Of a DNA stretch of 64,000 nt, positions 18,001-51,000 are shown in pieces. Both the position numbers and the translations under genes were made by a program. The notes beneath the pieces were generated by a model. It was not told the DNA's origin and did not search any database. It worked only from the letters and a program-made list of their open reading frames with translations. The stretch lies in the NCBI GenBank assembly GCA_964415355.1, contig CAYPYS010000001.1, positions 283,819 to 347,818 on the forward strand, given 5' to 3'. The stretch comes from an uncultured Planctomycetia bacterium (lineage in GTDB: Bacteria > Omnitrophota > Gorgyraeia > Gorgyraeales > Gorgyraeaceae). Each line of letters opens with the position of its first letter. Positions within the stretch are counted from its first letter, which is position 1.

Positions 18001-21000
18001 GAGCCTTACGGGCTCGACCAATCTCCTTTTAATCTCCCCAGCTAGCTCCTCCAGCGCCTCTTGCCGCTCGGTATTGAACTGTTCGAGAATCTCACGAGGA
18101 ATACTGTTCGAGCGAGGCGACTCCAAATCTGCTTCTCGACCTTGCTCGAAGAGGATTTGGAGTCGACGAGTCGAGAACCTATTCTGAATCTCTTCTATCT
18201 CACCCTGCAGCCACTTTGCAAATTGCCTAATCGGCTGCGGAACCGCTTCTATGCTAATTCTATCCCATGCTTCTCCATTCTTCTCGACAACCCTATAGAG
18301 AAATCCATTTTTACCAAAAACATCCTGATTCCTAAAATCAGTGTCTATATTTGCAACTAGCTCAAGTTTAATTCCTCTCGCATCTGCCTCCTGACTCAAA
18401 ATCCATTCTGCGGATTTTCCATAATATCCTGTCCTTGTATCGCTCGTTATAAAAATAGTCCCGCCAAGAGTTATGAAATCAAGTATTAAATTGATTATCG
18501 ATGTTTTTTCCTCTCTTGTAAAATGATAGTGGATGTCGGTGAATACATTTAACATTGAGATATGGCAAAATGAACTCTCTGACCACTGCTCTGATTCCGC
18601 AACCTCAAATATGCCTTTGCCTTTACCGTAAATCTTCACATCCAAATGTCTGTCTAAATAACTCTCTATGTGTTCTTTTAAGTCTTTTGTATTATCTATT
18701 ACGTCTTTGTCGGGATCCACAGCATGCACTTCAAGTCCTCTTATTGCATCGAATATTGGCAACAAGGAAGCGCCATATCCTATATGCAGCGACTTATCTC
18801 CTATTTGAAGCGTTCTGTCTAAAATTCTAAGAGATTCTTCACTTGCAGTGCTTGGTTTACGATCTGGTAATTTCTCCAGCACATCTAAAAATTCTCTCAA
18901 ACCTTCGCTATCCCCAACCACTAGCTCCCCTATCACCATTTCATATAACCCTGCCAGAGCAGCTGCTGTAATCTGCTTTCTGTTCACTATTGCATCATTT
19001 ATTAGTTCGATGACGCTACTTTGGTAATCTTCACCAGAATCTGCCTTTTCAGCCTCCATCATAATCAACTCAGCGTTTCCACCAAGAGACATCTCAAAAA
19101 ATGTGCCTTTGATAAGATCGCTAACAAGAGGTGTTGCAACCGGACGCCAAGACGGATCCAAAGTGATTTCAAGCCCAGAATGCTTCAATACCTCTACAAA
19201 ATCATTGAGCTCGTCATAAATATGCTCTGTAAGTACAACAAACTTGCCCGCAACGCCAAGTAACAGGCTCGTTGAACGTGCAATATCAGCTGTGAACATA
19301 TGAGGCTCTTTTGGCATGCTATCATTTGGCGGCATAGGCCCGATCATATATATCTCGTCAAATCTAATCTTATCTCCAACCAAACCAGCAAGCTCCTCAA
19401 CCTTCATTCTTATTGATATGACATCTTCCAAAACACCTACAGAAGGAGCAAATACAAACTTTCCTTGTTCTGGTTCAACCCCAATAATAAGCCAGCTGGA
19501 ACTATCTTTTCTTTTTATGTCCCTTATATTCAATAATTCTTTCCCTTGGCCTGCTCCGATACAAAGCGCGCATTTAATATATTGTCCTTCCTCAATTTTT
19601 CTACGCAAATCTTCAGATATAAACCCATTCACATCATTTGAAGATAAGGATCCCAAAAGTTTTACAACTTCCTGTGCAGTTTTGCCTCGACTGCTGTCAC
19701 CGTAATCTGCCTCTATGGCTGCCACGAGAGCCTCGAACTCGTGCTCACCTTCATACTTAGTCACACTGTTATCTGTGATTCGATAAACAATTCTGCGCCC
19801 TGATTTTACCTGATCACCATAAAATATAGATTCTGCAATAGCTCTTAAATCTCCAACATCTGACAAAGCGTCCTCTAGCATAACTGTATTAATTGTTACC
19901 TTCTCCCAACTAGAGGTTTTTAACAAAATAAAGAATCCGCTCAGTAAGAATTTTTCTGCAAGTATATCAACACCCTTACTAAATCCTTCAGCTGTAGAAT
20001 CACTGAATAAATAAACAGGCCTGCCTTTAAATTCGTTATCTTCTGGCATAGATTTTAGCAAACCCTGCGCATCCTTAATGAGGGGGTCTTCGCTAGTAGC
20101 GATCTTCGCCTCACTAGCACCTGCTTCAATCGGAACACCAGAAGGTACATTAATCTCAGTCTCTATCTGTACATCTGCAGCCTGCTGTATGAGCTCAAGA
20201 GCACCCATTGTATCTTGTTGCATCTTCTCAGCTCGCAATCGCAGAAGTCGCGCAACAGCATCCTCGGTGTCCTGCATAAAAATCAGAGATATACTAAGAT
20301 CTGTTTTTCTGATAAGATCTATAACATCCTCTTTTTCACACCATTCTGGATCATGTACTCTAAGTCCTTGATCCTGTAATACTTCTACAAATCTATCCAG
20401 AGCTTCATCCCACCATTTTTCTGTCAACAGTGTAAATTGACCTGTTTCAGATAGCAATCGTGCAATTGCTTCTGCAATTTCAGGTTTAAACATATGCTTT
20501 TGCGTGGTAGCTTCGTCTGGCGGCCAAGGACCAATCATATAAACTTCGTCAAATTTAATTCTATTCGTAACTAAGTCTGCAAATACTTCAAGGTTTAATT
20601 GACATGATACTATATCTTCAGGCATATCCCCGCTGATAAAAGTAAAACTCCTCTTAAAAATAGCTTGGTCTGGCTCAAGGCCAATAATAAACCATTTCTG
20701 GGCATCCTGATTGTTTTTCTTTAATTCTTTTAAATTTAACAATTCCTGACCTGAGCCAACGCCTATACAAAGAGCTAACTTGACATCTTCACCTTGCTCT
20801 ATAGCCTTTCGCAGATCTTCGGAAATATTGCCCTTCACCTTTTCCTCAGGCAATGTGGTAAGAAACTCCAGAAACGCATGCGCATAACCTCTATTTGCAG
20901 TCGTCTTCGTTGTATTCGATTTCGACAATACATCATCTGCAGGCACAAGTAAGCTCACCGCGCCATCATCGGCTACGGCCAAAGCTAACTCTGCCTGAGC

Positions 21001-27000: not shown

Positions 27001-30000
27001 CGGCCCCTCTTGCATCAGTAACATCCCAACCTCATCATCACCAGGGTTAGCTGCGCCCTCTAACCGCGCTAGAACAGTTTCGAGAGCCCTACGCATTTCT
27101 GTAGCAGTCTGGTATCTATTATCTGGCTTTGACTGAGTGGCTTTTTTTGCCATTTCTCTAAGCGCTGCTAGGTCTTCAGTTTGCCAATCTGCCTCTCCTG
27201 CAGCTAAAAGCTCCTCTAAAATCCTGCCCAGCGCATAGATATCAGACCTTTGCTCAGCGTAGCCTTCGAACTGCTCAGGAGCTGCATATCCTATAGTGCC
27301 TTCTTTACCATATTCTCCCTCGTATGGATGAGGGCACGCTAATCCAAAACCACCAACTAGTACCCGGCCTGTATTGTCTTCTATTTTAATATTCTCGGGC
27401 GTTATATCTCTGTGTATAAGCGCTCCTTCTGTAAAATTATGCATGTATTCCAAGGCCTCGCAGACTGTCATTACGTATCTTACTGCGTCTTGCAAAGTAT
27501 AAGAATCTATCGCTTTTTCCTGCCTGTTAATCAAATCTGCCAGATCTACGCCCTTAGGATATTCTACAAAAAAGAATGGCGCATTGTTTGCTTCCTTTCC
27601 TGAGCTAAGCGTAACAGTGCATGTGCTTTTCCCATGTACCCTTATGATATTGGGATGATGTCCGTCAGGATGCTTTTCATGCAAGGCCCTTAATATATTA
27701 TATTTTCTTTCGAAAAGTTCATCAAAGATTGCCCTTATGTCTTCAGGCGGGATTTCTCCAAGCACCTCTAGAGCTACTATTTCTTGCGTCTCAATATCGC
27801 TGCATAAATAGAGTATCACGCGATTACCTATTTTAAATTCGCGTTGCGCCACGTATCTCTTTCCATCATCAGTAATAATTTGGACCTTTCGTCTTTTTGC
27901 TGTTAAGTCACGAAGCCTTTTCTCTATGTCTATCACTGCTATTTCTGCTTTTGCGCCTTTATTATAAAATACCAATTGGCCTGGCTTATTGACAATGGCA
28001 GTCCATTCCATGCCTTCTTCATGCGCTTTAGCCTGACTTCTGATCACCTTTACTTCTTCTAACAAGAATATATCGTCGTATATATAAGTACCTGTGCAAG
28101 CCAGGTTAAGTTTTCTCGGTGAATCCGCATTCAGCTTGCGCATAGCCTCCCATGCGCTGGGAGTCGCTATCAAATACCTGTCGCCTAGCTGCGCAAAGAT
28201 ATGCATGACATCAAACTCGCCTTTTTCAGTCACTAAGGTAAAGCTTGATAACAAAAAGTCCAGGGAAATATATTCATGAAGGGCTAATTTATCCCTAAGT
28301 TTAGCAGGCATCTTTTTTGGTTCTCTTTCCTCGAGCTGTGCCAACACGCCTTCAAGTGCCCAGAGCATCTCTTCTGCGGTCCTGTATCTATTTTGAGGCT
28401 TAGAAGTAGTGGCTATTGCTATAACATTCACGATCTCATCAAGCGCATTACCAAGGCCTTCAGCTGCACCTTTACCAAAACGCTTGTCTATGACTTTTCC
28501 TGTCAGCGGGTATTCATCAGTAGTAAAAGTAAAAGGTGTCACATCTTGTGCATGTTCATTATCCAAAAGATCCTTTAGGGTTATGCCTAACGCATATGTA
28601 TCGCATCTAGGCCCCTCCCAGCCTTTGTATTGCTCAGGAGGCGCATATCCTTCAGTGCCAATTATTACCTTGTCATCAAAAGGATAGGTGCGCACTGTGC
28701 CAAAATCAGTGAGTACTGCACTTCTTGTGCCTTTCTTTATTATAATATTTACAGGCTTTACATCGCGGTATATAAGGTCGCGCCTGTGTAAATATGCTAT
28801 TACTCCTGTGATCTCTCCTATCCATCTCACAGCATCCAGCACAGTATAACAATGCTCGCCTTCTGTCTGTCTATTCTTAAGATCTTCCAACTCATCGCCT
28901 TCGATATATTCCATTACCAAAAATAATAGATCGCCACCGATACGCTTACCATCAACAAAAACATCGCCTCTGCCTTTTTCATAGACCTTGACAATATTAG
29001 GATGGTTACAGGTTTCTAACATTGAATATTCTGCTTTAAAAAATTCCTCTATGGACGGTTCTGTCAATAAGCACACCTTTAAAGCTACTTTCTTCTTTCT
29101 TTTCGGATCCCAGCATAAATATACCCTTGAATCATTGCCACTGCCTAGCTCTTTTATGACCTTATACTCCGGACCGTCGCGGATTGCATTGGCATGAGCT
29201 ATGATCCTTCCTATAGGCCTGGCTATTGGCGTTAACATAAAACCCTTGGCGCCTCCAAGTCTCGCAACGCTAAAGCCGTAGTCCATCCACGCTTCTACAG
29301 TGTTAGGTATAGGTTTTTTCCATACCTCTGCAATATTAGGCATGGAAAAAGGCAGCACGTCTACAAATAACTTGCCTTCATCGCCTAATATTTGCCTGAG
29401 CTCTCCTAAGTGACGCTTTGTTTTTGCTTCATCCTCGTATAAGATCTTCATGGATTCAGTGCTGAAGATCAGATCTACTGAATCTGGATCTAAATAATAT
29501 AAAGATAGGCTTGCTGCGCGATCAAAGATAATAGTAATCCCTTCAGGAAGCTCTAACCATTTTCTAAATGCTGTTTCAGAAAGCCCTATAAGTTTTATCT
29601 CTTTTCCTATGCCATTTTCTATGCCGAGCTTTTGCAGTTCTCTATGTAATGCTTCTCTAATATTTAAAAGCGCTGTTCCATCTCCGCACCCCCAATCCAT
29701 GACAGTAATCGGACGGCCGAGCTCTTTATATAACTCAATGATCTCTTTAACCAGGTTGCAATTAAGCCTTTTATTGACAACAGCCAAAGAAGCATTGAAA
29801 TCAACGTATTCCGAATTCCTTACCAGTTCCAACTCTTTGTCCTCGCTAGCACGCACGCTATAACTCTGAGAACCTTCTTCATCTGCGCCAGTAATATCCG
29901 AATTTAATTCTTCTATCTGATCTTCTCCTAATCGGCTCTCTACCTCAGCTCCTCCTGGAAAGCCTATAGTGGCAACGGCCCCTAGTGTACTCTGCAGTTT

Positions 30001-33000: not shown

Positions 33001-36000
33001 CCCTATCTTCTCAAAACTTTTCTGATATATCTCGGGAGAAACTTTCTCCTTGTCAGGCTTTGGTGTCTTCACCATCATCACAAACGCGCCGACGGCAAGA
33101 AGTTCTTCTATTATGTCTATTAAAAACATGATCCCTTGTTCTATAAGAGGAAATATATAACGTTCCAGGAAGACATGGTGGAGAATAAAAGTTAATACTG
33201 TAATTGCTAAAGCTAGCCCAGCTCCTTGAGCTCTGAGCCTGCCTGCTTCTGCAATGTCTCCCTGTTCCTTTTTATCTTTAAACTCATCTCCTACAGACAG
33301 AAATTTACTAGTTACCCCAATTAAAACTGCTGTGACTAACAAGATAAATAACACATCCCAGACAATATCAGGAGAAGGCCCTGCCTGGATAAACTGTGGC
33401 AAACTTAACATTTCAACAATGTTGACATTGTCAAAGAAAAGGTTTACTTGGTTGGCAAAATAAAAAAGTGGCAGAGGTATGATACAGCGCATCCTTGATC
33501 TGTCGAATAAAGATGATACAACAAGCGCCAACAAAAGAAGTACGCTTATTAACAATAAAACTTCTTTGGGTAAATTTAGAAAACGATCCGTCGCTAGCTT
33601 GCTTCCGGTTATAATCCTGTCGACGCCCTCTGGTGTTACCGTAGGAATAATTGGTGACGGTGTTACAACCGGCCCTCCAAAAATCCCTTCACCCAGGCCG
33701 CTTATAATAGAAAGAGGCGCGGAGATACATGACATTAATAATTCATCGACAGCTTGCCTGATTCTGGAATCTTGTTTTTTCCTGCGCCTAACATTAGTAA
33801 TACCTACTTCGAGCGCTTTAGCCACATCTGTCGTACTAATCCTCTTTCGCCCATTATTTCTTAGTTTCGATGCTATAACTTCTACATTCCTATGTCCAAA
33901 ATGTCCGTCTGCATTCCTTCCTTGTCCTTTTTTAAATCCTTCTTTGTCTAAAAATTCTGACAAGCGACCCTCTGATAGTCGTATAGCTCTCATAACATCA
34001 TTTGTGCCAACGCCTAATCTGTTAGCTAAATTCCTGCTGGTCTTTCTATGAATTTTCCAATAGGCTCCTGTTGCTGCTTCGCGCACTTCACTCTCACTAA
34101 GATCAACAGCTGCTTTACGCGAACAACTTACAACCATCATAGGGATAACAATGTTAAAGTGTATACTTAAAGATTGCTTCGCACCTATGGCACTCGCAAT
34201 GACAGAATACAATGCAATAAGGGCGATTATAGCTAACAATAGGAGGATAAGCTTTGCTCTGGAGAAAGCTAAGCTTGGTTTCTTTTCTTCCCCTTTATTT
34301 CCATTTAATAAACCATCAAGCAATTCTCGGATTCTGTGATCTTTTTTCGTCTTTACCCATAAAGTCGAACTATTAACTCCGAGTACAGAAGCTACATCTT
34401 TCTGTGTAATATTTGATTTCCGTGTAGCACCTGAGCTTCTCGTTCCTCTTAAATATTTTATAGCAGCCGCGACATTTCTATGTCCATAATGTTTTTTATT
34501 CCCAACTGCCGAACCTGTTACAAAATTCTTTTCTCCTAAAAATTCTACTAAGCCGGGCTTGGACCTCATAATAGCACTCTGAACATCATCTTTGCCAACG
34601 CCTAATCGATTGGCTAAGTTCCTAATATTCTTTTTTCTAAACAACCAATATATACCTCCTGCTGCCTTACGCACTTCACTCTCACTAAGATCAACAGCGA
34701 AGTTTGTACGGTTAGACCCTGCCACAAAGTCCTTGTCTGTTGTATCTACCTTTAATATAAGTTTTCTGCCATCACCTGAAACTCTTGTTGCGTGGTAAGA
34801 AACCGGCTTTTTACCATCAGGAATAAATACAAATATCTCCTTAGCAGCCGTTTCAAGCCTAACATCTGACGCCAAGATAGCCTGTGCCTTCTGTAAATTT
34901 ATTGCGCCTTCAGATATATCATCCAAAACAAGTCCATTCTCTATCAATAGAGTTATTACATCGATCCTTGCCTCATCCATGATCTCAACAAGCACGCTAA
35001 CAAGGCAATTCTCTAGCAGTAAATTGTTAATATGGTACCCAAATGCCTGGTTTGCCTTCAGGTATTCTTCTCTGTCCTTACCTTTATAGTCGACTTCTCT
35101 TCCACCGAGCTTTTCTATAAGCTCCATGAACTCTACTCTTTCTTCAAAGACATATAGGATGCGTTTATTTTTACCCTGGATTATATGCTCTACGGCTGCT
35201 TTTCCTAAGAGACTGCACATGGCCATGTCAACTTCAGAAGTATCAGCTGACCTATAGAGATAATCTATCTTTCCAGCCTCTCTGACTTTTATACCTGCAG
35301 ACTCGCATAGATGGCTTATGATGGCTGTAGTGATACGTCCTGCATCCTTTAGTTTTGGATGTCCAAAGCCGTCGACTTTTCCTTCAGCCTGCTGAAAAGC
35401 CATTCCTGCAACTTCGTCTTTACTAAAGGCGTTTCTCAATACTTCTTCATTATTGGCAAAGCCCTTGTCTATCTTTACGCCTTCCGAAACGATCACTATT
35501 GCGTAGCCGTAATCCTTATAGTAAGCCAAGAGGTCTTTTCCTAGCATTTCAAGGTCAAGGTCTTCTTTTTCAGGTATAAGGGCAAAGGCTACATTGGCTC
35601 TTGCGCCTATAGCCATGGGTGCAAAACCAGCGTTTCTCCCAAATACCTCTATTACCAGGATATAGCCAGTAGAGGAGGCATCTATTATTGCGTTCTCTAC
35701 GCCTAGCGTGCCTGCTTTGACAAAGCTGTCATAGCCATAGGTAGAAGCCCCATGAGGAAGGGCAATGTCATTATCCATGGTCTTGGGAAGGCCTATGATT
35801 AAAAATTCAGGAAGTATCTCTTGTAACCTGTAGGATGCTCCATTAGTGTCGTCTCCTCCGCAGGTTATAAGGCCGTCTAGCTTTAAGACCTCAGTAATAT
35901 TTTTTCCGATAAGTTCGGGTATACCGCCTTCGATGTTCTTCTCGCTAAATGGATTAAACCTGGATGTGCCAATGATAGTAGCTCCTTTTGTGCGGTGCAG

Positions 36001-39000
36001 TTCTGCTTCTTCCAGCGTAATAGGAGCTGCTTTTCCTAAAAGTTCCTCATCTGCCAGGCCTTTCCAGCCGTTCCTTATTCCGATTATTTCTATGTTGCCT
36101 TCATCATGTGCTCTTTTTACAGCTGAATATATGACCTCATTGTGGCCTGAGGCAGGTCCGCCTCCTGTGAGGATACCGATCCTTTTTGTTGGTGAGACTG
36201 TGCCGGCAAATAGAGCCACCCCTATTCCGTAAGTATACATTTCAACATTGTTAGATTGTGAAGTTAAGAGTTCTAAGGGAATAGATATGAATGCATCATT
36301 GAATGTGGATAAAAGAGCAGTGACAAGAATTGCTATGCAGAGCAGAATAAGGACTGTCCAACGTGGCGAACCTCGCGGAGATTTATTGTTTCTCCAACCC
36401 TTTGATCCAAAAAGACCGAGGAACATAAATGCGTATGCGAGAGATTGCTTCACACCTGCGGTATTCGCAATGACGTCGTGTTTATACATCGCGATCAGGG
36501 ACACGCTATCGAACAAATTAGCAAACGGTACAAGAAACTCAAGAAGCTCTGGATATATATCTATCGCGATCGGTAATGCATAAGAAGTGGCTCCCCACAT
36601 GGTCCACGCAGACTGAACTGACATTGCGATGAGGCCAAAGATCGACGTTTGTCCAGCAAAGCCTTGGCGTAAAATAATGCTGCAAATTAATAATCCATAC
36701 AAGATCGCAAATATAATAATAAAACTAATCGGATTAGCAATTAATCTAAGGGATATCCTATTGAAAATCGTGTCGATAATAGGCTGTTTCTTATCGGCAG
36801 ATCTATTTTCTAAGCTGTCTTTAACTTTTCTTAGTATCTCAATTGAATCGCACATAGACTCTGTAAGAATTATACACCGAGGTGGCGCATCCATATCAAA
36901 GATATATCTCGTCACGGTCTCCAATCTTCTAAGATCTTCTATATCTAGCTCCTTCCCTAAAGCCCTGAACTCTACACCTTTTAAAGCGGTGTCTCCTAAC
37001 ATAGTTCTTATATTAACTAGAGTATCCTCTGCGCACTCTGCCTCTCCTGCAAGAAGAACAACGGGAATATTGCCTCTGTCTTTGCCTAGTTTTAGCAAGG
37101 CTTCACTAAAACGAGAAGGATATTCAATAACGTCTTTATCTGTGAATAGAACTGGAGTTTCTTTCAAAGTAGAAAGATTCACTGAGTAACTTCTAAATAA
37201 CATTAAAAAATCTTTGGTAAGTGCCATAGGATCTTCTATCATCTCTCTGCAAGCTGGGTATAGCATTAATAAATCTTCAGTAAAATCTCCTGGCCTAGCA
37301 GCTATCCACTTATCTAATTTATCCAATGTTACCCACTTCACAGCATGCACTTCTTCGTTTGGATAGATCTTCCCGTCAAATCTAGCAAAGGCAATATGCA
37401 TTGGCACATATTCACTCTTAAAACCAGAACCGTCTTTCTTTAAACGTTGCGAGATAAAACTCATTGGTGTACCAAAAATTCTAAAATCTACATCGCTATC
37501 CCTAACCTTTCTCTCATTTCGTAATTCTTCTATAAATTCCCTGGGTACTGTTACTTCAAGAGATTCTCCGCTTATAGAATGACCTGCAAAAGATATATCC
37601 CAAAGACTAGGATTATCCTTAGTTGAAGCGCGTTGCTGAAGAAGTACCTGTCCTTTTGAATTTGATACAAAACATTTCATATGCTTGTTTAATAGACCCA
37701 ACTCATGGATTATTTTTCTGGGAAGACTACCCATGTATATTATTCTCCCATTACCATCCTTTTCAAAATAATCTAGGATCTCGATTCTTTGTCTTAACTC
37801 TAATAGCATCTGAGTAAAGTCAGATTCTTCTTTATGTCTACTTACTATATCTAAAATTATTTCAAGTTCTCCTACTATCTTTCCATTTTCCTGATAATAA
37901 ACAATTAATGCATCTAATATTTTTATAACTATATTAAAATTAATATCATATAGTTCTCTATTATATAAAACATCGATTAGGCGAGCATAGGCTTCCAAAA
38001 ATCTCTCCTGCTTGCCATGCATAAGACCCGTTAGAAGATTCATTGTAGCAGAAGATGCTGAATCAAAATGCTTGGGTATCCCAGTAAGCATAGAACGAGC
38101 TTCTTTTTTTATTAAAGCTGTGACATTAAGATCTCTTTCTGCAGTGCTCCTATCATGGCGCACCACCCAATCAAACAACTCCAAATTCTCTTCTAAGACT
38201 TCAGATCTATCATTAACTATAGTTATCACATCACTTAAATCAGATATACTTGTCAAGTAGTCTACTATAAAATCAGCTCCTTTTAGTAGTCGCTTAGCAA
38301 TCTTTGTTCTGTTGCTCAATCTCTCTCCAAGGGTTTCTTCGAGAGCACCTACAATAGAAGCCTTATCTAAATCTTGAACTCCTTCTGGTGATACAGGCAT
38401 AATAAAAGCTACTCTTGCATGAGGAAAACTCTTCTTTAAAATTTTAACATGTTCTATAGAAGCCATATGAAATAGCAAGATCTTGCCTTCTCTAGTAAGC
38501 TTATCGAGCTCTTTCTTCTCAGATGCATAGTCGTCTCCGTAGATTTCCCATTGTACATCAAACTCCCCTCGATCTTTTTTCGCCTCAAACTCTGCTCTAG
38601 TTACACATTTTTTATCGTCTCCTGGGCCACGATAAGGTCGCGTTGTCCAGCGCGTAGGACATACCACTTCATCTGGATATTGTCCCTCTAAAAAATTCAT
38701 AAGAGTACTTTTGCCTGCGCCAGAAGAACCTGCCACAGCAATAACAGTCTGCCTTGTCACTTCTTGACCTATATCATTATATTTTTTGTAGATTTGATGT
38801 AATAAGAAAAGACCTATGCCTATTATAGCTAACATAATCTCGTAACTTAACACTTTAATGTTGTTGAAATGTAAAATTAGGGTGAGGACAGCGCCTATCC
38901 ATGCAAAGATAAAACCTACAAAGATCAGAGAGCCCTCTTTGTCGCTTCCTATCTGTATTTTTAGTATCTCTTTTTCTGATAACTCAGGATTCTTCTGATG

Positions 39001-42000
39001 CAGGAGTTCATGTTCAAACACTATATTCTGTGCCCATTTAGGGAGATAACCATAGGCGGGATGATATTGGATAGTATCAGTAGTTTTATCATATGAGGCT
39101 ATTGCAGTACTATAATATGCTATGAATCTCGGAGGGCCTCTTTTCTTTATTGTATCTATTATAAAGGCAAGATATATTGCAAAAAATAACATGAGAAATT
39201 TCACGGCCTTTGCAAACTTAAGGTTAGTAAGGGCTATCCATGCTCCCTGTAAGGCAACCTTAGGAGACATAGTACTCTGTAAATTAGCAGGCAATGTCTC
39301 TGTACGAAGCGCATCTCTCCTTGAAATGCTCAAGGCCAATTTTTCTGCCCTTGATGGCATCTCTTCAAACGTTAAAAGCTCTGATAATATCCAAGCGTCC
39401 CACTCTCCTGGAACAGGCTCTGAAAAACCGAGACGGTTCTTTACATCATCTAATAACCAGCTAAGAAAACGGGTCAATTCTTCCGCGGACATTCCCCTGT
39501 CTTTAAAATCCTTATAAGCCCGTTTAGCGATAGGCAATAATAACTCTAAGGATGTATTTTTATGATGCCGCAGCCATCTCTGGATATCCAAATCGGCTTC
39601 CAAGATGCCATGACTGCGATACCACGTAAACCTCCCACTTGCACGCCAATAGTCCAATCTGCTTCCTACAGGCAGCCCTGTATTAAGCCACTTTTTAGTT
39701 TCGGCGTCATGCTCACCAAGCTCCCAGAGCGACCATTCAATTAGTCTGGCCATTCTTTCTTCGCTCTTGATCTGTGCCTTTTTACGGGCAATCAAAAGAT
39801 CTTCTAAGGAGATCTTTTCTCCTATCAGCTCCTCGATGCTGACATAGGGCTTTTCCATTACAATCACGCCAGCCCCTGGCTGATGGAACCATCGTCTATC
39901 AGACCAGCGATAAGAAGCGTCAAAAAAGAGAAATCCTTCCCGTTGCAAAGAATCCACCCATTGCTCGATTGCCTTGAATTCAAACGGAAACGGCATAGGG
40001 CATTCATTGACAATAATATTGACATACCAATCACTGAAAGCCAAAAAGAGGTTTTTCTGCTCACGATTTAAAGCTAGGAATAAGTCACGCAACTCTGGAA
40101 ATTCAGGGTCGCTACCCACAGTAATAAGCATGGAGTAGCTGTCTTCGAATAGCATTAATAGTCCCCCTTGTTTTAAAATGCGCTTATTTTCCTCTACAAA
40201 GGAACTGAAAAATCTTTCTTCTACATGATGCATAACAGTATGTTGTATTACTACATGGACTTCTCCATCTCTAAAAGGCAAGCTAGTAGGATCAGTCTGA
40301 TGACAAAAACTTACTCTCTCGCCTTGGTATGGTTCATTAACTCCCATGTCACAGCCTATAACCCTAAGCCACGGCCTGCCTCTGACCATCTCCCTTCCAA
40401 GAAGATTCTTGCCCGCCCCTATATCAGCAACAACTACATCCTCGCCTGTATGGTCGTAAAGCGCATCGATATATGGCATGACTAACTCTAAAGTAGGTTC
40501 GAACTTATTCCCGCCCTGGCGATAGAGTCTGTAGGCTTCTTGAAATTTAACATCTGTCTTAAAGCGAATGACTTTATCATAAAGAACCTCTTGCGCTTTT
40601 ACAGGATCATTTGCATGTTCTCCCAAAGTATCTATGATCCTCTCGGCTAGGTCAGAGGGAAGTTTGTATCGCGAATATCTAAGTGTTAGTAGCCCTAATA
40701 TTACTTCTCTTACTTCCAAATCCTCTAAGGCTATAAGAGGATTCCAAGCTAATGGAAATTGATTTTCTTTAATAGCGACTGCACCTAAAGCTTTAGTTAA
40801 TAGATTCTTCCACGGTGGACTGCGCGGAGAATCACTGTTTCGCGAGTCTTGTGATCCGAAAAGGCCTAAGAGCATAAGAACAGGGCCTATAAGAGATTGC
40901 TTAACCTCTGTGGCGGTCGCGATGGAGGCAGTAGAGGCAAATATACCTGATCTCCCCAACATCTGAATAAGGTATATTAACATTAACGAAATAGAAAATG
41001 GATTAACGATCCACATCATAAAACCATCCCGGAACCTTGGATATCTCCAGGTAATCCTGCCTTCTGTAATAGGACGTCCCATAGGAGAAGTCGCTGTTAT
41101 TTCTCCCTCTACAGAGCCTTCTCGTATGTCTAAATGGCATATCCTGATCACTGTTAGGAAATGAATTAACGCGACAATAGAAAATATCCAATAACTGGCT
41201 GTAAGAAATGTAAGATCAAGGACATCAAAGGAAGTGACAAAAATCCACGCAGCAACACCTAATATAACAAATATACCTGTTGTCCATTGCATCCATCTGC
41301 GATATTCTCTTTGAGCTCTAATAGCTGTATTCTGATAACCGCGTTCTGCAACCTCAGGTCCCATATTGGAAAAAGGATCATCTGAGTCAGGTTGTTCTAT
41401 AATTTCTGGCATAGGCCTGAAGAAATCAAGCCACCACGCAGTCCCAATACCAATGCCAATACAATAAGCTATAAAAAAAGCCTTAAGCCCTGCATGTCCT
41501 ATGTTCAATAGTGCATTTTGATTTATAGAGTACAAGACCCATGAAACCCATGCCCCTATGAATAGATACCATAACAGCCTATAGAAATTCAGCATTCGCC
41601 TGTTTATAGAGTCATCATCGGAAACCGTGCCTATAAAGATAAGGAAAGAACTGGAGAGTACAGAAAAGGAAGACATGTCAGAGACTATTCCTGGCGGGGC
41701 ACGGCCGGCAAATATGCTTCGAGCAAAGTCGAGGAAGTGCCGAGATGTCCCGGCGAGGCCAATCTTTGTGCCATCAAATACCAAAGGCAGCCAGTCTACA
41801 TTTTCCTGGAGCGTCATAAAAAACCAGCCAATGCCAAAGGCAGCTACTATGATAACAATCAATCCGATTGCAATAGCCCATAGGCTAAATTCTCTATTTT
41901 TTGCTTTAGATAGATCAACATCTCTTGCAACATGTTCGTTAGCAGCTCTACGCTCTCCTGTCTGAGCCTTCTTTGTCACGCTCCTAGCCCACATAGCTAA

Positions 42001-45000
42001 CAAGAAAAATACCGCAACAATAACTCCTATAATAGCTATAAACGGATTTCCACCAGCCCCGGCAGAATAACCCACGTCTGACATTAAAAATGCCGTTAAA
42101 ACAACGGGAATAATAACATATGCTTTTGCCTTGATCGCCTTTTCTGCCTCTGTTTTAGGCAAAACTAAGAAAGGTATCAACCGAATAATATCCGAGATAC
42201 ACCCTGCAAGAAATAAAATATTTATCTCACCAAGAAAAATCAGAACATGTGATCCACTGTTCAAACCAATACGAACTAATATAAAACCTGCGATACTGTG
42301 TATAGCTGCAGGCATTATTAACGTAAAAATCCAACCCAAAACAGAATCAGGGAAAACTTTAATGTCAGCTTCAAAACCCATAGCAAATCTCCTTACACTT
42401 GCTCCCTCTGCCCCAAACAATCTAGCTACCCATACATGAATCATTTCATGAAGTAACGTCAGACCAAAAATAGCTGGTATCACTAATCGAGCAGCATCTG
42501 TTTCCTTCCACACATTTTTTAAAGAAGCCAAACTTACGGAACCATTTAAGAGATCAGATATAATCCCATAACCAGGGATGCCAAGTAAAACGATATAGAC
42601 GGAAATTACGAAAATGGAAATGATAGCCACTGTTAAAATTAATGGAGCACTTTCTTCTTCTGGATCATTATCTTCTGGATCACTATCACCCAATCTGCTG
42701 TATGCTTTGGTGTTTCTTGCAATAATCATTATGATTAAAAGTGCTGATGCTGCAATTAATATTGCTTTAAAAATCATTTGAGATGTAGCAGGACTGAGAG
42801 TAAGTTCAAGTTGCTTTGACTGCTCCACGGCAGCAGTCAAAGCTGTTGCGTCCTGAGGCTGCGGTATATATGTATCAGCTATAAGTCCTCCGAAAAAACC
42901 TATCAAGAAACAGATAACCGCAGGGCCAAAAGAAGTTCTATCTCCTGGCTCTTTTCCTAATTCTGAAAGGCCTAATCCGAATACCATCCCTACAATTCCC
43001 AAAACAACAGCAGTTACTAAAGGAGTAATTTCAGTGGAAGAACTTGTCTCTGAGTTTACGCAGCCAGATAGGAATAAAAGAACAGATAATATTAATAATA
43101 TAAGCGGGGCTCGTGAATACCAAGAATCTCTATCTTCTGACTTAGCAAAGATAGAACCCATGAATAGAAAACCAAGAGATTGCTTCACACCTGCGGTGCT
43201 CGCAATGACAGGACTCAGTGCGCCATTAAAATTAGCAGCAACAGGCATCATAGAGCTTGAAATTTCTGACGCTATAAAAAAATGATAGATTATTAAACCT
43301 ATAATAACTAAAAACAGAAGCTGGAACATGGCTTTGATAATTTTTTGGCGCATTGTAAGAGGAGGGCCAGTTTCAATACATCCTCCGCATTGTACAACCT
43401 TACTAGGGATCTCAACGGATGGGTTCAATTTTTTGCCTACTATTCCTAAAATAATGTGCACAAGAATAAATAGAATGCCTCCTATCCACGCAGCTGCTCT
43501 TAGAGAAAGATCTTTATATATCAGAAGCCACCCAACTCCTAACATAAGCAAATTAAAGATAGACCATAAAAACTTTCTTACTCTTATATATTCCTTAGAT
43601 ACATTGGTGTCAAAGACAACGTAGCTGCCTCCACTGCATTGTGCACTTTCCCCTGTATTATGCTTACGCTGGCCAATACCTAAGATAATGAACATAGAAA
43701 CATAACTTTCCGTTTCAGGCGCGAATAAGCCAGAACCAAATATTTCACCCCAGGTAGACAATACAATACTAAAATTCTTCGTAGCTAACCATGCTGCAAT
43801 AGCTGCAACACCAAGAAGAACCAATCCTAATTTAGGTCGTTTATTTAAAAAGGATGCGATAGCGAACCACGTAGCCCCAATTATAGCAGCAGAACCACCT
43901 ATGGACCATAAGATAGGCTGTATTAAAAGATCCTGAACGCCTTCTGCGCCATGATAGATCTTCCAACGGTTAAAAGGCATGACTACTTTAAGATCGAATG
44001 TCAGCTTCGCATACAATGCAAACAAAATAGCAAAAACAACAAAAAGTGCAGCGCCTATCACAATCATCCAAAACATGGCTTGATTAGTAAGTTTTGTTCG
44101 AGCGCGATATAAAATCTCTCTTTCACTTGGCGCAGCAAAATCTTGTCGTGCTAATTCTTCTTCCGTTTGTCTCCGCGGAAGTTCTTTTTCAAGAAAATCT
44201 TCAAAAATATTTAAACGCTCATCGTCAGATCCGCCTCTTCCTGTAGTACAAAATAATACTGGCAATAATATATCAGGAGAAGCAGGGAGATGTGAAGTTA
44301 AGAGCTCTATCGCAGGCGATATAGCGGAATTTGGGTTATTATCAGGCAACGCTGATATTAGACCTAAAACTAAAGCGAAAATAACAATAATTGCAATAAT
44401 ACAGAACGCAGTCGAAAATTTCAGTTTTTCTGATGATTCAATATAATCATATTGTGTTTGTGTAGCAGAGACTTTCCCTAACTGTTGCCTGCGTCTTCTT
44501 AGATCCTCTGTAGCTTTTATTATTTTTCTTATGACTAAGGACATAATGATAAGTAAAACAACCTCCCCTGCTAAAAAAGCATATGAAAACGTATTTGCAT
44601 CTTCACCATGATGTCCTGGATGTCCTGCGGCTAGTACTTGAGAAATAGGAATTGCTGAAAGGATTAAAGCAAAAACAGGTATTGCGAGGATCTTAAGAAG
44701 TTTATACCATGGAGGGCTGCGTGGAGACTTGTTATTCCTCCAACCTTTCGATCCAAAAAGAGTTGCGACTATAAGCGCAGAACCAATAAGAGATTGCTTT
44801 GCGAAGTTTATCCCGAGCGCAGTCGAGGAACTCGCAACAACATCCTTGCCTGCCATAGCAATCAGAGACATATTGTCGAATAAATTCGTAAACGATATAG
44901 AAAGCCCAAAAACATGTCTAAAAGGAGTTTTTAACATCCAGATCAGATTTCTCCAATCAAACAAATCCAACACCGACAAACATCCTATAACAAAAACTAA

Positions 45001-48000
45001 GATAATAACTGAAACTATTACAGGCACTCGCCGCGCCACCTTTTTCTTTATTTCTTTATATTTTTGACCTGCTGCCTCTCTTCTCCTAAGATTTTCTATT
45101 CCTTCTGCATCGGGTCTTATGATAACTATAGCCTCATTATCTAACTTTAAAGAATCCCAATAAAAATTAAGGATTTTGTCTGTAACAACACCAATTAAAT
45201 TTATAATACTATGAGCCATTATAGCGGCTAACATTCCGGCAAGCCTCCCATATAAGATATTGCCTATGGTATAGAGAATAAGAAAGAACCCCCTATAAAG
45301 AAAATACACGATTCTAGTTTTTGTAGAATCAGCACTATGAGCAAATGAAAAAATACCACAAAGGACAACCGCCCCTAATATCAAATTATTGAGCATTGAG
45401 TCAAAGACAATGACATAACAACCAATGTATAAAAATTCCTCAAACAAAGGAAATATAGACACCTTGAAGAAACTTGTTACTATGCTCTTTTCCGGAAGCA
45501 ATCCGTTTATTAGAGGGGCTTGTATAAGTATTGATGCTTGCACAGCAAGCAGAGTAAGAATATGCCATATTAGCAAAGAAAATCTAAAATCTTGAATTTG
45601 GATTAAATCAAAAATATCCCATATCAAACATGAAGATAAAACTACTGAAAAAACAAAGAATATAACTCCAGAACGCCATGAACCAATAATATCTAAATCA
45701 TTTTCTTCTGGATACTTTGCAGTTAAGATCTTTTTCACTAAACGCCATATCAAATAAAACTCAAGAGTCATTATAATAAAATTGGCTATAAGAGCTCCTG
45801 TTCTAATGTCAAAAGCCCTGGCAAGAAGGATTAAAGTAAGAGTGGGTATTGCGAGGATCTTAGCAAGTTTATACTTAGGCGGGCCGCGGGTAGAATTGCT
45901 GTCTCGCGAGCCCTGTGATCCAACAAGACCCAAGAACATAAATGGAAGACCGGCAAGAGATTGCTTCGCTTCGCTCGCAATGATGGAATAGATTCCCGCT
46001 TTCACGGGAATGACATTGGTTGTAGAGAGGAAATAGGTTATACCTATGAATAATAATATTGCGGTTGCTGCTGTGGGGGCTGCTGGAGCAGTTGGCTTAG
46101 CTGAATCGCCGTTAGTCTTTTCATTAGCTATAACTATCACTTTTTTTAAATACTTACGGTCTTTGATAAAATTTTCGTCTTCTTTGAACCACTCTATATC
46201 AAGAGCTGGGAATCTCTGTTTGTCATTCAATAAATCACGCATCTTTTCAAAGACCTTTGAAGCCAAAGCTTTTGCTTCAAGATAAAGCTCTATAATGCGT
46301 TCCTTGAGTTCCTCATGGGAATCCTCTTTAGCTATCCTGCTTAATGTTTCCGCCTTGTCAAATACCTCATCTACTTCTTTAAGAGCCTCTTCGATTTCGT
46401 ATCTAAACAAACGCTTCTGAGCCGTTATAGTCTCTATCTCCGCACTAAATAATTCCACAACTGTCTGGGATGAGTAGACTCTATCTTTTTCGTCTTTTAA
46501 CAAGCTATAGTCATAATTATCATCGAGTGAGTTTAGTAACTCACGTCCTTCTTGTATCTTTCTGTAAGCTGCCCCAGGATTAGGTTCTCTACCAGGCTCT
46601 GCCTTAGGATCTTTGCCTGGTTTTACTCCTTTGAGTAATTCTTCTGCTTGTAAAATAATTATTGCAAGACGATTCTCAAACCTTGCTAATTCCTCTTCAA
46701 TAAACTGTCTACTGATATCATGTATTATGCCTGAGAAAGTTCTTATATTGCTAATATATTCACTATTTTTTATATTCTCAGGTGCTGCTTTTAATACATC
46801 TATTAATTCATTGCATTTCTCATGTCCAAGCACTCTATCCCTAGTCTCTTTATGCGCTACATAGATATCCTGCACATAAGGCACCAGACTAATCACAAAT
46901 TCTGTTATCTCTATTGCCAGAAGCAATGCAATACGGACTGCTTGTATTTCCTCTAATGACTGCCATAGATTGCCTCTATCGTCCTCTCCTGGTTTGATGA
47001 TCTCTAGTGCTCTAGAATAATTTTCCAAAGCCCCCTCATAGTCACGTGCGGCAAATAAATGCCACGCCTCATCGGCATAATCTGCCAGTCGGCTCTTTAT
47101 ATTCCTGAAAATTTGAGCGTTTTGTATTGCTATAAGGCTGGTGTAGATCTCGTCTGCTTCAGTAGATATTTCTTTTAATAAAGCATCGATATCATCATGC
47201 CTGATAAATGAAGTAGGCAGCCTCATTTCACGCAGTAATGCCTCTGGATCCTTTAAGGATTCAGCCAGGTTAAGGGCCTCGATCAAGTTAGGCTTTCCGT
47301 CTTCTGATAAGGCTTGTTCTATTGCTTTTATCTTTTCCATAGATGCTCCAAGCCATTTTTCTATACGCGCTGTCCTTATCCTTATCGTATCTGCTTTAAT
47401 CCTTTGTGGTTCACCTGTCTGTTCAGTAGTAATTCTTATAAACTCTACGAAATCTTTCCTTTGCGTAGCCAATGCTTCTTGTTCTTCCCGTTCTGCCCAT
47501 TCTATTCTTTTATTTCTAAGCGCCTTTACCACCATAACTGGATTAAACATCTTTTCAAAAATAACGCTATCGTCACCGGCAACCTCTATCTTAACAGTGC
47601 CATACCGAAATACATTTGCCCAAAATCCCTCCAGCAATGCCTCTTCGCTCTGGATCTTATCAAATGGTATCTCCTTTTTGTCGCTATCTTCTGGCGGGAA
47701 GCCAGGAAATGTCGGTATCTTAAAAACAAACCCTATCCTGTCTTCTCTTAAGATAAATTCATCATCTTTCCAATCCTCAACTGCATACCAGAACTTGTAT
47801 AATGCAGCCAATAAAGGTACAGCAGCAGAAATAATAGCTCCTCCGCCTATCACTCCCGTTAAATCCAGCAAGAAAACTATCAATGATATTAAAACAATAC
47901 CTTCGGAAATAAGCCCTGAATAATCATTTCTCTTATCCTCTTCATCATCCTCTTTTTTATTAAAATTAAAAGCTGCTAGATGCATTAAAAATATCAATAT

Positions 48001-51000
48001 TACGCTTATGCCGAGCCAAACAAGAATGCCGAGAGAAAATACTTTGGCAACAGTTAAATAGAGCATGACCGTAATTGCTCCATGTGCTAATAAACTTAGG
48101 GCTGGCAAGAAAGCCTGCCCTATTAAAATAAACGGGTGTTTACGATAGTAAATCTCTTTATCTTCTGACCAGCGATGCGCAGGGAAAAACGGCAAAAGCC
48201 TTTGCTCACTTCCTATGTTTTTCTGCTCTATTTCTCTCATGGCCTTCTGACGAGCTTTTTCAGCCTCTACTCTCTTTAAAACTGCCTCATCCGGCTCCAA
48301 GCCTCTTCGCCTGGCAATCTCTATATCCATAAGATCTGTATCATGCGCTGCTCTTCTCTTCTCCTCGATCTCCTTGGCTTTCTCTACTATAGTTACTACC
48401 TCTTTTGCTTTAGCCGCAGAAATGGGCCCAAATACTATCTCTTTCTTGTGACCAGCTGAATCTATTTCAACAAAGCATGTCCCAAAAATACCCTGTAAAA
48501 AAGTCGACTTTATGCTATTATGCTGATATTTTTCCAAGTCTATAGACACATCTGCTCTTAAAGAAAATAATATGTTTTCAGTCGCTGCGACACGCCTGTC
48601 AGTAACTACAATAAAATCATTTACAGAATCATGCCAAACATAAGCCAAAAATGCGCCATATATGCCTAAGACTATTCCGCTTGTAAATATGAATGTACTT
48701 AAAGACATGATCTTTAAAATACCTAGCTTAAAAACAAAGAATGGTAAAACAAATATCGTTAAGGCTAAAAGAGTAACAGGCAGAGCTATGCGTATTAATA
48801 GGTGAGAAATATGTTTTGTCTCGCAAAACAAGACTTTTTCTCCCTCTGTAAGCCATTTGAAATCCTTGCCTTCTAAGACTGGCAATTCTTCTTCAGCGCC
48901 ACCTTCAGTTACTACTATGGCATCTCTAGGAGTTTCGTTAGTCTCATATGCCACTGGCGGAAGATCAGTAGCGACACTGATCATGGTATCTTTGGTCTCT
49001 GATTCTTCAATTAAAGTTCTTAAAGCACTGAGATCTGGTTCTTTTGCCACAACAGGGATCCCTTCTATTGCAGTTTTTACTGCTCCTGCAATGCCCTGGC
49101 CTATTTTCTCTATTTCTTTCACGATATCTCTTAGGTTATTCTTTATGCGCGCGCGAATAATACCTATTTTAGTATTGATATCTGTCAGTTCGACTTTTGG
49201 AAAATCAAATAAAACAGGCTCTGGTACTTTCTTAGATATAGGTATTGATGACAGATCGAGATCGCCTCCAGTAAGAGGAGACAATAACGCATGGCGCTCA
49301 CGACCACCGCGAGACAATGATTCTCTAAAGCTATCGCTGAGCATGTCTTGGCTACGGGAAGAAACTTCTTCTCCTGCTCCGAATGAAGCCATTACTGCTG
49401 TTGCAGTGCCAGCAGCTGCAGCTCCTCCTGCAGCTATCTCTGCTGCCTCTGCAACTCCTGCAGCCAATTCTGCAGCCGCAGCCATCCTTCGCGCTTTCAT
49501 GATACGAGAAACAGCAGTTATTGCACCAGTTAAACTCGCAAGGGAAATGCCTCCGCCAACACCCATTAAAACAGCGGCTTCGCCTGGCTCTTTACCTGTA
49601 ACAAACATTATGCCGACAACTACTACTGTTACAAGGCCTATAACAAGGCCTGCGACAATGAGTATCTTTGCCAAAAGCGAGACCTCGCCATCTCCATCTT
49701 CATCATCTCTATCTCTTCTTCTCGGCCATTCTCTTTCTGGTCTATCCTTCTCAACAGGCCTATCCTTTGGCTTTATCTCAAACTTTGGTAGTTTTGGAAA
49801 CAAGTCACCTAGCTTAGGAGGATCCCATTCCCTTGGTTCTCTTTTAGGCCTCTCGCGTTTTACCCTAGGTTCTCTCTTAGGAGTTGGTCTTTTTTCACGG
49901 TCAGGTTTTCGTTCAAGCAATCTCTTCAGCACAGAAATAATCCCACCTGCTGCGCCTATTGCGCCAGCTCTCATCATAGCGGCGATCGCCTTAGGCGTCA
50001 GCCTCGGCCCCAGATCACTGATTGCCTGGATAATGGCGCTGGATTCTTCTTCATCATCAGCTTTTAAGAAATTAAGGACAAAGCCGACGCAATCCCGCAC
50101 CAGTGAGATTGAATCATGCAATACGGCTCCGAAATTATCGTTAAATAGTTTAGCTATCGGCCAATCTTTTGGCATCCCAAGAGCCACTAATGCTGCTTCC
50201 TCTGAATTCATGTCTTGCTGCGATATACCTTTCCTGCCTATCTCACTAAAATAAACAGTGTGGCTGAGGGCAATATTTATATTCGCAAATAATTCCAGCG
50301 CATAATTATCAAGGGTCTTGCGGAACTTGTCCAATGTAACGGAATCTTTATTGCCTTTCCTCGCATTTTCTATAAGATTGTCTATGATATCTTCTACCTC
50401 TAGCTTTGTCTTAAAGAGACGGTTTAGGGCATTTTGTAACTTAGTCTTGTCTTTACTATATTTATAGACATCCAGATGTTCCATGATATAGGCAATGCGT
50501 TTTTTATAGCTCTCCAGGCTATCAGAAGAAGCTCGTTTAAGGGCATTCACTAAATGATCAAGCGCATCTTCTGCTCCTTCTACTTCCAGGGAATTTGATT
50601 TTCTAAAAACCTGTACCAGCATAACAATGCCTTCATAACAATCTCTGCCGACTAACTGAAAACCTGCCCAGCGAGCGATCTCTCTATTTACTGCAATGTT
50701 CTGCTTTATAAGCTCTTCTCTCTCATCCGTAGAATCATTATTTGCTAAAATATCTTGATCGTCACCCGAAATCGCCAATTGCTCGTTTAATCTATCTAGA
50801 TCTTCTGATAATTCTTTGGCGCGCGCTTCTAACCAGTTTATATACTGATTTACGCCATCTTCTCTATCTATAAACACCCTATCCATCTGTTCTGGAGTCG
50901 TCTTTCCCAGCATTTCCTCATGGTTACGCAGCATTTCTTCTCCCTGCCTAAGGTCATTTTCCTCTGCTGCTATATCTGCAACATCAGTTTCTAACTCAGC

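Follow-up and report, generated by a model that had tools for sequence, protein, structure and literature searches.

The 64-kb window considered here (64,000 nucleotides (nt), positions 283,819 to 347,818 of contig CAYPYS010000001.1; coordinates below are counted within it) is filled by a single minus-strand frame, which has no stop among its 21,333 codons and is open at both ends. This host gene encodes a multi-enzyme, multi-transmembrane giant protein of the Omnitrophota type. Inside it, directly after a phosphofructokinase (PFK) module, stand two units which are an old internal tandem duplication of a strongly basic, all-helical module of about 135 amino acids (aa), composed of two divergent halves resembling helix-turn-helix (HTH) domains, and each copy is followed by a membrane segment. 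As a whole the feature is an orphan, duplicated, bipartite HTH-like module next to membrane anchors, and its place so far within a multi-enzyme giant of at least 21,333 aa is unusual. We tentatively lean to the reading that it is a lineage-specific, membrane-tethered module binding nucleic acid, probably DNA, the chances of which we put somewhat short of even.

The two units are paralogues. They share 47% identity over 131 aa in BLASTP (E 3e-31; 44% in the MAFFT alignment), and their starts are separated by 588 nt, which corresponds to a period of 196 aa. The duplication had already been proposed in the first-pass annotation of this DNA and stands once the feature is assigned to the minus strand, where the mechanical list of open reading frames (ORFs) contains no entry because the stop-free frame leaves the window on both sides. 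The overall DNA identity of 70–80% estimated then is too high: the actual value is 58.6% over 133 aligned codons, and 77% is reached only across the first 128 nt. The reported 29-nt identical core was indeed found at the start of each unit; with up to 3 mismatches allowed no third copy exists in the window, where chance would be expected to produce none. Searches of the remainder of the 21,333 aa with hidden Markov models (HMMs) revealed no additional unit or half-unit, which leaves two copies in total, and Tandem Repeats Finder reported nothing, the 588-nt period being above its 500-nt limit and the copies being only 59% identical.

Since synonymous divergence (dS) between the units is about 0.9, the duplication is old. 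The ratio of non-synonymous to synonymous divergence (dN/dS), estimated by the Nei-Gojobori method on 59 and 74 codons and therefore rough, is 0.37 for half A and 0.87 for half B. With dS of this size the former value implies that half A has been maintained under selection since the old duplication, and half B appears to have diverged except for a few anchor residues. The 29-nt core is perfect despite the synonymous divergence of about 0.9 elsewhere. For ten conserved codons the chance of this was roughly estimated by hand at about 0.003–0.01, and either a very short tract of gene conversion or a constraint at the nucleotide level could account for it.

The net charges of the units place them in the top 1–3% of 135-aa windows of a protein with a mean of −2.9. 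GC content, GC content at third codon positions (GC3) and codon usage of the unit region lie within 1.6 standard deviations of the gene mean. Horizontal acquisition of the units was considered and rejected, as all three parameters match the host gene, and so was an internal transcription unit or embedded separate gene, promoter-like and terminator-like sites being at shuffle expectation. Positions of all features are collected in Table 1.

Table 1. Features of the host gene, the two units and their surroundings within the 64-kb window
Feature	Window (nt)	Strand	Residues (aa)	Remarks
Host gene	1–63999	−		one stop-free frame of 21,333 codons, continuing beyond the window at either end
PFK module with lineage-specific C-terminal extension	34795–36186	−	9272–9735	PF00365, E 2.3e-38
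Unit 1	34282–34701	−	9767–9906	net charge +14; predicted all-helical (AlphaFold2)
Unit 1, half A	34513–34695	−
Unit 1, half B	34297–34497	−
HTH motif A1 IRNLANRLGVGKDDVQSAIM	34567–34626	−		A5, L8, G9, V10, V15, A18, I19; regular-expression match; Pfam HTH_10/HTH_36/Phage_CI_repr E 0.03–0.15
HTH motif B1 QKDVASVLGVNSSTLWVKTK	34345–34404	−		LacI-like DVA..LGV...T[LV] pattern
Unit 2	33715–34116	−	9962–10095	net charge +12
Unit 2, half A	33925–34107	−
Unit 2, half B	33727–33912	−
HTH motif A2 SRNLANRLGVGTNDVMRAIR	33979–34038	−		Pfam HTH_10 E 0.019
HTH motif B2 TTDVAKALEVGITNVRRRKK	33775–33834	−		non-canonical, Glu for Gly at the turn; Pfam Put_DNA-bind_N E 0.005, HTH_AsnC-type E 0.07
29-nt identical core CGCACTTCACTCTCACTAAGATCAACAGC	34670–34698 and 34082–34110	−		encodes AVDLSESEV(R), start of each unit
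Strong transmembrane helix between the units LILLLLAIIALIALYSVIASAIG	34183–34251	−	9917–9939	hydropathy scans
AKQS turn and weakly hydrophobic stretch LSIHFNIVIPMMVVSCS	34120–34182	−	9940–9960	possible return helix of a membrane hairpin
Pro/Thr/Gly-rich linker after unit 2	33562–33714	−	10096–10146	direct reading
Strong transmembrane helix after unit 2	33505–33561	−	10147–10165	first of a cluster including aa 10212–10230 and 10262–10278
KQSL element, copy 1	45778–46047	−	5985–6074
KQSL element, copy 2	44620–44868	−	6378–6460
KQSL element, copy 3	43087–43212	−	6930–6971
KQSL element, copy 4	40741–40977	−	7675–7753
KQSL element, copy 5	36250–36504	−	9166–9250
KQSL element, copy 6	34165–34224	−	9926–9945

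Helix-turn-helix-like halves and their relatives

Each unit consists of two halves, which align in equal register at 14–19% identity and look like diverged copies of one another. In either half a first helix (ESEVRKAAGGIYW in half A, GHRNVAAAIKYL in half B) is followed by a spacer, a 20-residue stretch with the HTH signature and a helix of the type R[IL]xE[LF]LD. The classical 20-residue signature has a hydrophobic residue in position 4, Ala in position 5, a hydrophobic residue in position 8, Gly in position 9 and hydrophobic residues in positions 10 and 15. Three of the four motifs (IRNLANRLGVGKDDVQSAIM, QKDVASVLGVNSSTLWVKTK and SRNLANRLGVGTNDVMRAIR) fit it in full, with Ala5, Leu8, Gly9, Val10 and a hydrophobic residue in position 15. 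Two such motifs per unit had been suggested earlier at the same places, and both peptides then quoted are found in unit 1. In the 21,333 aa the core pattern is encountered 7 times, whereas shuffled sequences contain it 1.26 ± 1.07 times; three of the 7 occurrences fall within the 270 aa of the units, and two others lie inside membrane helices. One more HTH-like stretch (SESDIGELRRLGYTDSLTLTQQLEYAERVGISEEYLAEWIKLAEF; window 58480–58614, minus strand, aa ~1796–1840) has the canonical core pattern and begins with LSES as the units do; its similarity to the units is not significant.

Pfam families matched by the units below their thresholds (about 10) are nearly all of the HTH type and fall on both motif positions of both units. 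Motif B1, which coincides with model helices 32–39 and 43–52 described below, gave HTH_Tnp_ISL3, Xre-like-HTH, HTH_24, HTH_8, HTH_23 and HTH_Tnp_1_2 at E 0.014–0.13. PHROGs returned only weak matches to transcription regulators, Ant and terminase small subunits, those to the regulators and terminase small subunits falling on the motif positions; NCBIfam gave no match for the units, and the sequence profile of the whole unit found none in PDB. A profile of the four halves met in PDB the HTH positions of sigma-28 regions 3 and 4, LacI, GntR, SpoIIID and SETMAR with E 0.09–0.9. Membership of the units in a named HTH family is not established. A likeness to region 4 of sigma-70, also proposed in the first-pass annotation, found no confirmation: with E ≤ 10 Pfam reports no Sigma70 family, Sigma70_r4 included, a region 2 is missing, and the sole sigma echo is FliA (E 0.089 with the half-unit profile). 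Among the other families then named for a check, HTH_Tnp_Tc3, HTH_28 and HTH_29 are absent as well, and only HTH_23 appears, sub-threshold at E 0.079. The idea of a regulator-type DNA-binding cassette, which a lack of HTH family hits had been expected to undermine, fared accordingly in two ways: at curated thresholds no HTH family supports it, and by the motifs, the basic charge and the predicted fold it is reasonable, secondary structure and fold both being consistent with HTH.

Half B was modelled with AlphaFold2 (AF2) from the alignment of the four halves. The model (pLDDT 78.7, pTM 0.64) contains helices 6–21, 32–39, 43–52 and 54–66, with a 3-residue turn between the second and the third. 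Nearly all of its top 50 neighbours in PDB are DNA-binding domains of the HTH type, namely those of SlmA/TetR, Rex, CRP, 434 repressor, Fis and DnaA-DBD. In the viral library the model comes closest to the heads of terminase small subunits, gp3 and the phBC6A51-type homeodomain, with TM-scores of 0.63–0.72 and root-mean-square deviations of 2.2–2.5 Å over 61–68 columns, that is, over the whole 67-aa model. All in all, half B probably has an HTH-type fold, and for half A such a fold is plausible.

A fold of this type may serve purposes other than binding of DNA. In RodZ the cytoplasmic HTH has MreB as its partner, and behind this HTH come a basic juxtamembrane stretch and then a transmembrane helix (PMC9804626, PMC6052060); by analogy the units could be used for protein–protein contacts or act as a structural juxtamembrane spacer. 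We consider this unlikely, yet the most probable of the rival readings. The order of elements is the same here, as the basic juxtamembrane segment KTKKDHRIRELLDGLLNGNKGEEKKPSLAFSRAK lies between the HTH part and the transmembrane helix; in half A, the better conserved of the two, the helix at the recognition position (DDVQSAIMRS / NDVMRAIRLS) contains few basic residues, and half B evolves almost as if neutral. At the same time no match to the RodZ-type HTH_25 family was obtained, the charge of +12 to +14 is spread across the whole module, beyond its juxtamembrane part, and the structural neighbours are overwhelmingly DNA binders.

Relatives of the units were sought in several collections. Neither unit found a match when 5.8 billion proteins were searched through a word index, and exhaustive HMMER with the two-unit profile yielded only two matches among 1.84 billion representatives. 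Both were rejected as homologues: the score of P0001, an IQ-motif repeat protein, is a sum of many weak repeats, and that of P0002, a protein of 52-aa repeats, is summed from weak repeats too, with a pairwise BLASTP E of 0.11. The latter (325 aa, six repeats of ~52 aa, each with an HTH-like GLADKLGIQRQDMRQAI motif) is the only near-match to half A. Pattern scans of genome, metagenome and viral contigs found no relative of the units, and tblastn against plasmids and phages found nothing; with halves of ~60 aa the huge libraries expose only relatives above roughly 40% identity, and the genome collections were searched without the source genome. In six-frame translations of 1.25 Mb, made up of 79 loci with homologues of PFK, neither HMM scored anything below E 0.2, and in the 13 Omnitrophota loci the canonical HTH pattern is absent for 1,500 aa on the downstream side of PFK. 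According to these HMM and pattern scans the copy number of the unit is therefore zero in the available homologous contexts, and the copy-number variation among homologous giant genes for which a check had been suggested was not observed, the unit being absent from all 13 Omnitrophota loci with the PFK module. Thus, as far as sequence comparison can tell, the module appears lineage-specific.

Two explanations are touched by this isolation. The first-pass annotation saw in the units a possible domesticated transposase, i.e. a captured N-terminal bipartite HTH of the IS630/Tc1-mariner, pogo/CENP-B-like or ISL3 kind. The bipartite layout with two HTHs about 45 aa apart agrees with that, and so do weak matches to HTH_Tnp_ISL3 (E 0.014), HTH_Tnp_1_2 (E 0.05–0.08), HTH_23 (E 0.079) and SETMAR (E 0.89), as well as CENP-B(1–129), which ranks 3 but with E 1.7 and a TM-score of 0.2. 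However, transposase HTH families are matched no better than non-transposase ones, all below their cut-offs. Pfam scans of the whole frame revealed no DDE/RNase-H domain in 21,333 aa, and there are no terminal inverted repeats, the only inverted repeat of the region being imperfect (14 nt, 86%); both absences had been noticed correctly from the outset. No relatives were found in plasmid, phage and viral collections or among the 1.84 billion protein representatives, and nothing in composition or codon usage sets the units apart from the host gene. At the available sensitivity an origin from a transposase or another mobile element is largely refuted, and we regard it as highly improbable.

The other explanation takes the module for a fast-evolving helical basic linker with a fortuitous HTH-like pattern, that is, for duplicated filler between membrane anchors without a specific ligand. 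All family and fold matches are below significance, no homologues were found in any collection searched, and dN/dS of half B is 0.87. Giant Omnitrophota proteins are, moreover, reportedly for the most part sequence-unique and enlarged by internal duplication (10.64898/2026.06.07.730766). Against the linker speak four independent motifs in the same register, three of them with the full set of A5, G9, V10 and hydrophobic residue 15, where about one is expected in 21,333 aa, as well as the dN/dS of 0.37 at dS ~0.9 in half A and the compact predicted fold of half B with its pLDDT of 78.7. We consider the linker quite unlikely.

Phosphofructokinase module, membrane segments and host protein

The PFK module is 42–55% identical to Omnitrophota PFK fusion proteins, and its alignment to P0013 reaches aa 9735. 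The homology stops about 30 aa ahead of unit 1, and the intervening stretch contains no hydrophobic segment. All 17 best PFK-module loci in GTDB genomes (34–56% identity) belong to metagenome-assembled genomes (MAGs) of Omnitrophota or to MAGs labelled Planctomycetales/Planctomycetia, and the best protein matches are named Omnitrophica or Auribacterota. By its PFK module, the only part that bears on the question, the giant protein appears affiliated with Omnitrophota. The closest relatives of the module (46–56% identity) reside in Omnitrophota MAGs (loci L001, L004, L005, L007, L008 and L015). In at least 6 Omnitrophota MAG loci the PFK frame is open over the entire ~21-kb locus, so that PFK is embedded in giant ORFs of those genomes too. 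Further relatives are 1,700-aa fusions with aldolase and GAPDH.

A hydropathy scan of the giant protein revealed 65 hydrophobic segments, which bears out its early description as a multi-transmembrane protein. Between the units there is one strong helix and then, behind the AKQS turn, a second stretch (aa 9944–9960) with about +4.9 kcal/mol on the biological hydrophobicity scale. We infer that turn and stretch form a hairpin returning the chain, which would leave both units on the same side of the membrane. The same turn belongs to a recurrent membrane element: KQSL occurs 6 times in the protein, always as [VI]IA[SN]..G[AV]KQSL followed by a hydrophobic stretch. Four full copies of the element are 46–57% identical and continue with GS[KQ]G.R...SPR.PP, and in three of these four a strong transmembrane helix comes next. 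A full copy stands directly ahead of the PFK module, and a partial copy is the membrane segment between the HTH units.

Charges flanking the membrane helices do not give one consistent picture. For the helix that precedes PFK (window ~36250–36310, aa 9200–9233) the charges are +5 at the N-flank and −2 towards PFK, so that under the positive-inside rule PFK would be placed outside. The helix after unit 1 has +5/−2 on the unit 1 side (N-flank; window 34252–34300, aa 9901–9916). PFK requires cytoplasmic substrates, namely ATP or PPi and sugar phosphates. By the contiguity of unit 1 with PFK and the +5 N-flank of the next transmembrane helix, the segment comprising PFK and unit 1 would be cytoplasmic.

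For unit 2 cytoplasmic and outside models are both consistent with the parity of transmembrane helices, and unit 2, or both units, might stand on the outer face of the membrane and bind extracellular or prey nucleic acid. There is a single strongly hydrophobic helix between the units, the second stretch costing about +4.9 kcal/mol; behind unit 2 comes a Pro/Thr-rich linker like those of secreted proteins; and most domains of giant proteins were predicted to be extracellular by West-Roberts et al., who called their transmembrane predictions unreliable (10.1101/2023.11.21.568195). On the other hand, 28 Lys/Arg in 134 aa make a poor substrate for translocation under the positive-inside rule, the six-fold element of AKQSL plus a hydrophobic stretch is consistent with a hairpin that brings the chain back, and the flanking PFK, GNAT and kinase domains require cytoplasmic substrates. 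An outside location is in our estimation very unlikely.

The remaining domain content was taken from Pfam scans of the whole frame, which registered bPH_2, Methyltransf_11, NUDIX, PFK, GNAT, two Pkinase domains (Ser/Thr), HATPase_c, HEAT_2, an MraZ-like segment, HD_4, RelA_SpoT and Pribosyltran_N, the N-domain of PRPP synthetase. The N-terminal ~4,500 aa (window ~50500–63999) have no Pfam match at E ≤ 0.001. HD_4 and RelA_SpoT at 3961–4980 together with a second HD_4 at 6415–6762 (minus strand) resemble a (p)ppGpp synthetase/hydrolase module within the giant protein, and Pribosyltran_N follows downstream of it near aa 20828. The MraZ-like segment (8764–8886, minus strand; aa 18372–18412) matches PF02381 with E 2.1e-5 and 24.8 bits against a cut-off of 23; no individual stretch passes alone, and the segment lies beside transmembrane helices. 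It is, by this match, a possible second DNA-binding fold in the giant protein.

The two Ser/Thr kinase domains are an old internal duplication (28330–29178 and 27058–27867, minus strand; 32% identity over ~290 aa), and another one is formed by ~135-aa segments without significant Pfam match (20500–20898 and 19309–19695, minus strand; 43% identity). The kinase pair and the ~135-aa pair exhibit the same mode of growth as the HTH units. Antisense to unit 2 there is a 190-aa ORF starting with ATG (33479–34051, plus strand). Its frame has 530 stops window-wide against 1,234 and 1,543 in the other two plus-strand frames, a bias that codon usage commonly creates on the strand facing a long gene and no evidence for a gene.

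Interpretation of the duplicated module

In the favoured interpretation the module would do what the DNA-binding heads of transmembrane transcription regulators do, or would tether the nucleoid to the membrane. Its two copies could supply up to four HTH contacts at the membrane face, and these contacts would be situated beside the signalling domains of the same polypeptide, i.e. Ser/Thr kinases, HATPase_c, RelA/SpoT and GNAT. The data themselves establish the duplication, the HTH-like pattern, the predicted helical fold with its HTH neighbours, the basic charge, purifying selection on half A and the lack of relatives in the collections searched; DNA binding, the membrane side and any regulatory or tethering role of the units are what we infer.

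Several observations weigh against this interpretation. The AF2 model of the whole unit is all-helical with helices at the expected places, and with pLDDT 53.5 it is too poor to use; half A is seen only in this kind of model, at pLDDT 42–57. Foldseek registered no statistically significant structural match (E ≥ 0.5), as is common with helical domains of 67 residues. All HTH families stay under their Pfam gathering scores: the matches have E 0.005–0.15 and 12–18 bits, those at E 0.005–0.03 reaching 14–18 bits, against cut-offs of 22–27. Homologues are absent from the collections searched, and motif B2 has Glu at turn position 9. Half B is nearly neutral (dN/dS 0.87) though it bears the most basic "recognition" helices, and basic charge is also expected beside transmembrane helices by the positive-inside rule. 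Finally, this rule is in conflict around PFK and unit 1, and with one strong transmembrane helix only between the units the membrane side is ambiguous.

A bolder version is that the giant polypeptide has a transcriptional output of its own, its HTH heads coupling kinase, HATPase and RelA/SpoT domains directly to DNA or being freed by proteolysis, or that unit 2 is outside and binds prey or environmental nucleic acid. We look upon this pair of options as improbable. Either, if true, would for the first time assign a function in nucleic-acid binding to a giant protein of Omnitrophota, and an HTH family without detectable relatives would carry it.

Published work on the functions of giant Omnitrophota genes has emphasised adhesion, degradation of cell walls, secretion and metabolic domains. 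If the units do bind DNA, they would directly connect the membrane-embedded megaprotein of an ultra-small cell with its nucleoid or its gene regulation, and a fragment of ~135 aa, which is easily expressed, would offer a handle on one function of a giant protein. If they do not, they would be one more lineage-specific duplicated filler segment in a protein class that grows by internal duplication.

Comparison with known systems

Bipartite HTH domains, which include the paired domain, N-termini of Tc1/IS630 and pogo transposases and CENP-B (1–129, PDB 1hlv), have in common with the units two tri-helical HTHs and a linker in ~130 aa. In contrast to them, no significant sequence or structure match, catalytic domain or element ends accompany the units. 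The HTH head of phage terminase small subunits, the phBC6A51-type homeodomain (PDB 2ao9) and HTH_Tnp_1_2 are the best structural neighbours of the half B model, and terminase-type heads have weak sequence echoes here (PF10668 E 0.15, PF13022 E 0.05–0.08, phrog_3218/509, 2ao9 E 0.69). Unlike terminase small subunits, the module has no oligomerisation domain, terminase context or phage genes around it, so the likeness is on the level of fold only, with all matches insignificant. With RodZ it shares the local order of HTH, basic stretch and membrane helix, and RodZ demonstrates that DNA binding is not obligatory for such an HTH; the differences are two HTHs per unit, two units and no known MreB-related context.

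Transmembrane transcription regulators (TTRs) are one-component proteins of the ToxR, CadC and BcrR type. There are 50,302 of them in 9,673 genomes, mostly with HTH heads, and an HTH with a transmembrane region is their commonest architecture, often co-occurring with HATPase_c (PMC10269533). Since such proteins are widespread, it was an overstatement of the first-pass annotation to call a DNA-binding module in a multi-transmembrane protein unexpected. TTRs and the protein described here are alike in a predicted HTH-type module adjoining a transmembrane helix in one polypeptide, in the co-occurrence with signalling domains such as HATPase_c, and in the position which the head would take at the membrane face. 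At least one transmembrane region is required of a TTR, and strong helices at aa 9917–9939 and 10147–10165 follow the units. A TTR is also defined by a recognised Pfam DNA-binding domain, whereas the HTH matches of the units are all below gathering score. Its head lies on the cytoplasmic side; here the contiguity of unit 1 with PFK and the flank of the next helix agree with that side, the helix before PFK suggests the opposite one, and the hairpin between the units is uncertain. TTRs, which have a few hundred residues, usually carry one head at the N-terminus, while the module here is bipartite and duplicated, lies inside the chain (aa ~9,800 of more than 21,333) and comes after a glycolytic enzyme module.

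The host protein as a whole resembles the giant multi-enzyme membrane proteins of Omnitrophota. HTH or DNA-binding modules have 0 occurrences in the main texts of two studies devoted to them (10.1101/2023.11.21.568195 and 10.64898/2026.06.07.730766), whereas HTH-like units are present here. The flank-charge conflict around PFK is the same paradox of "extracellular glycolytic domains" as that noted by West-Roberts et al. An ORF of more than 10,000 aa, many transmembrane helices and a mosaic of enzyme and signalling Pfam domains, by which giant proteins are recognised, are all found in this frame, and its domain set agrees with "module 1" and the multi-enzyme class of 10.64898/2026.06.07.730766. 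The likeness extends to size (more than 21,000 aa with dozens of transmembrane segments here), to the tiling of methyltransferase, HATPase_c, GNAT, NUDIX, HD, HEAT and sugar-metabolism domains, and to growth via old internal duplications with decayed DNA similarity in a mostly unique sequence.

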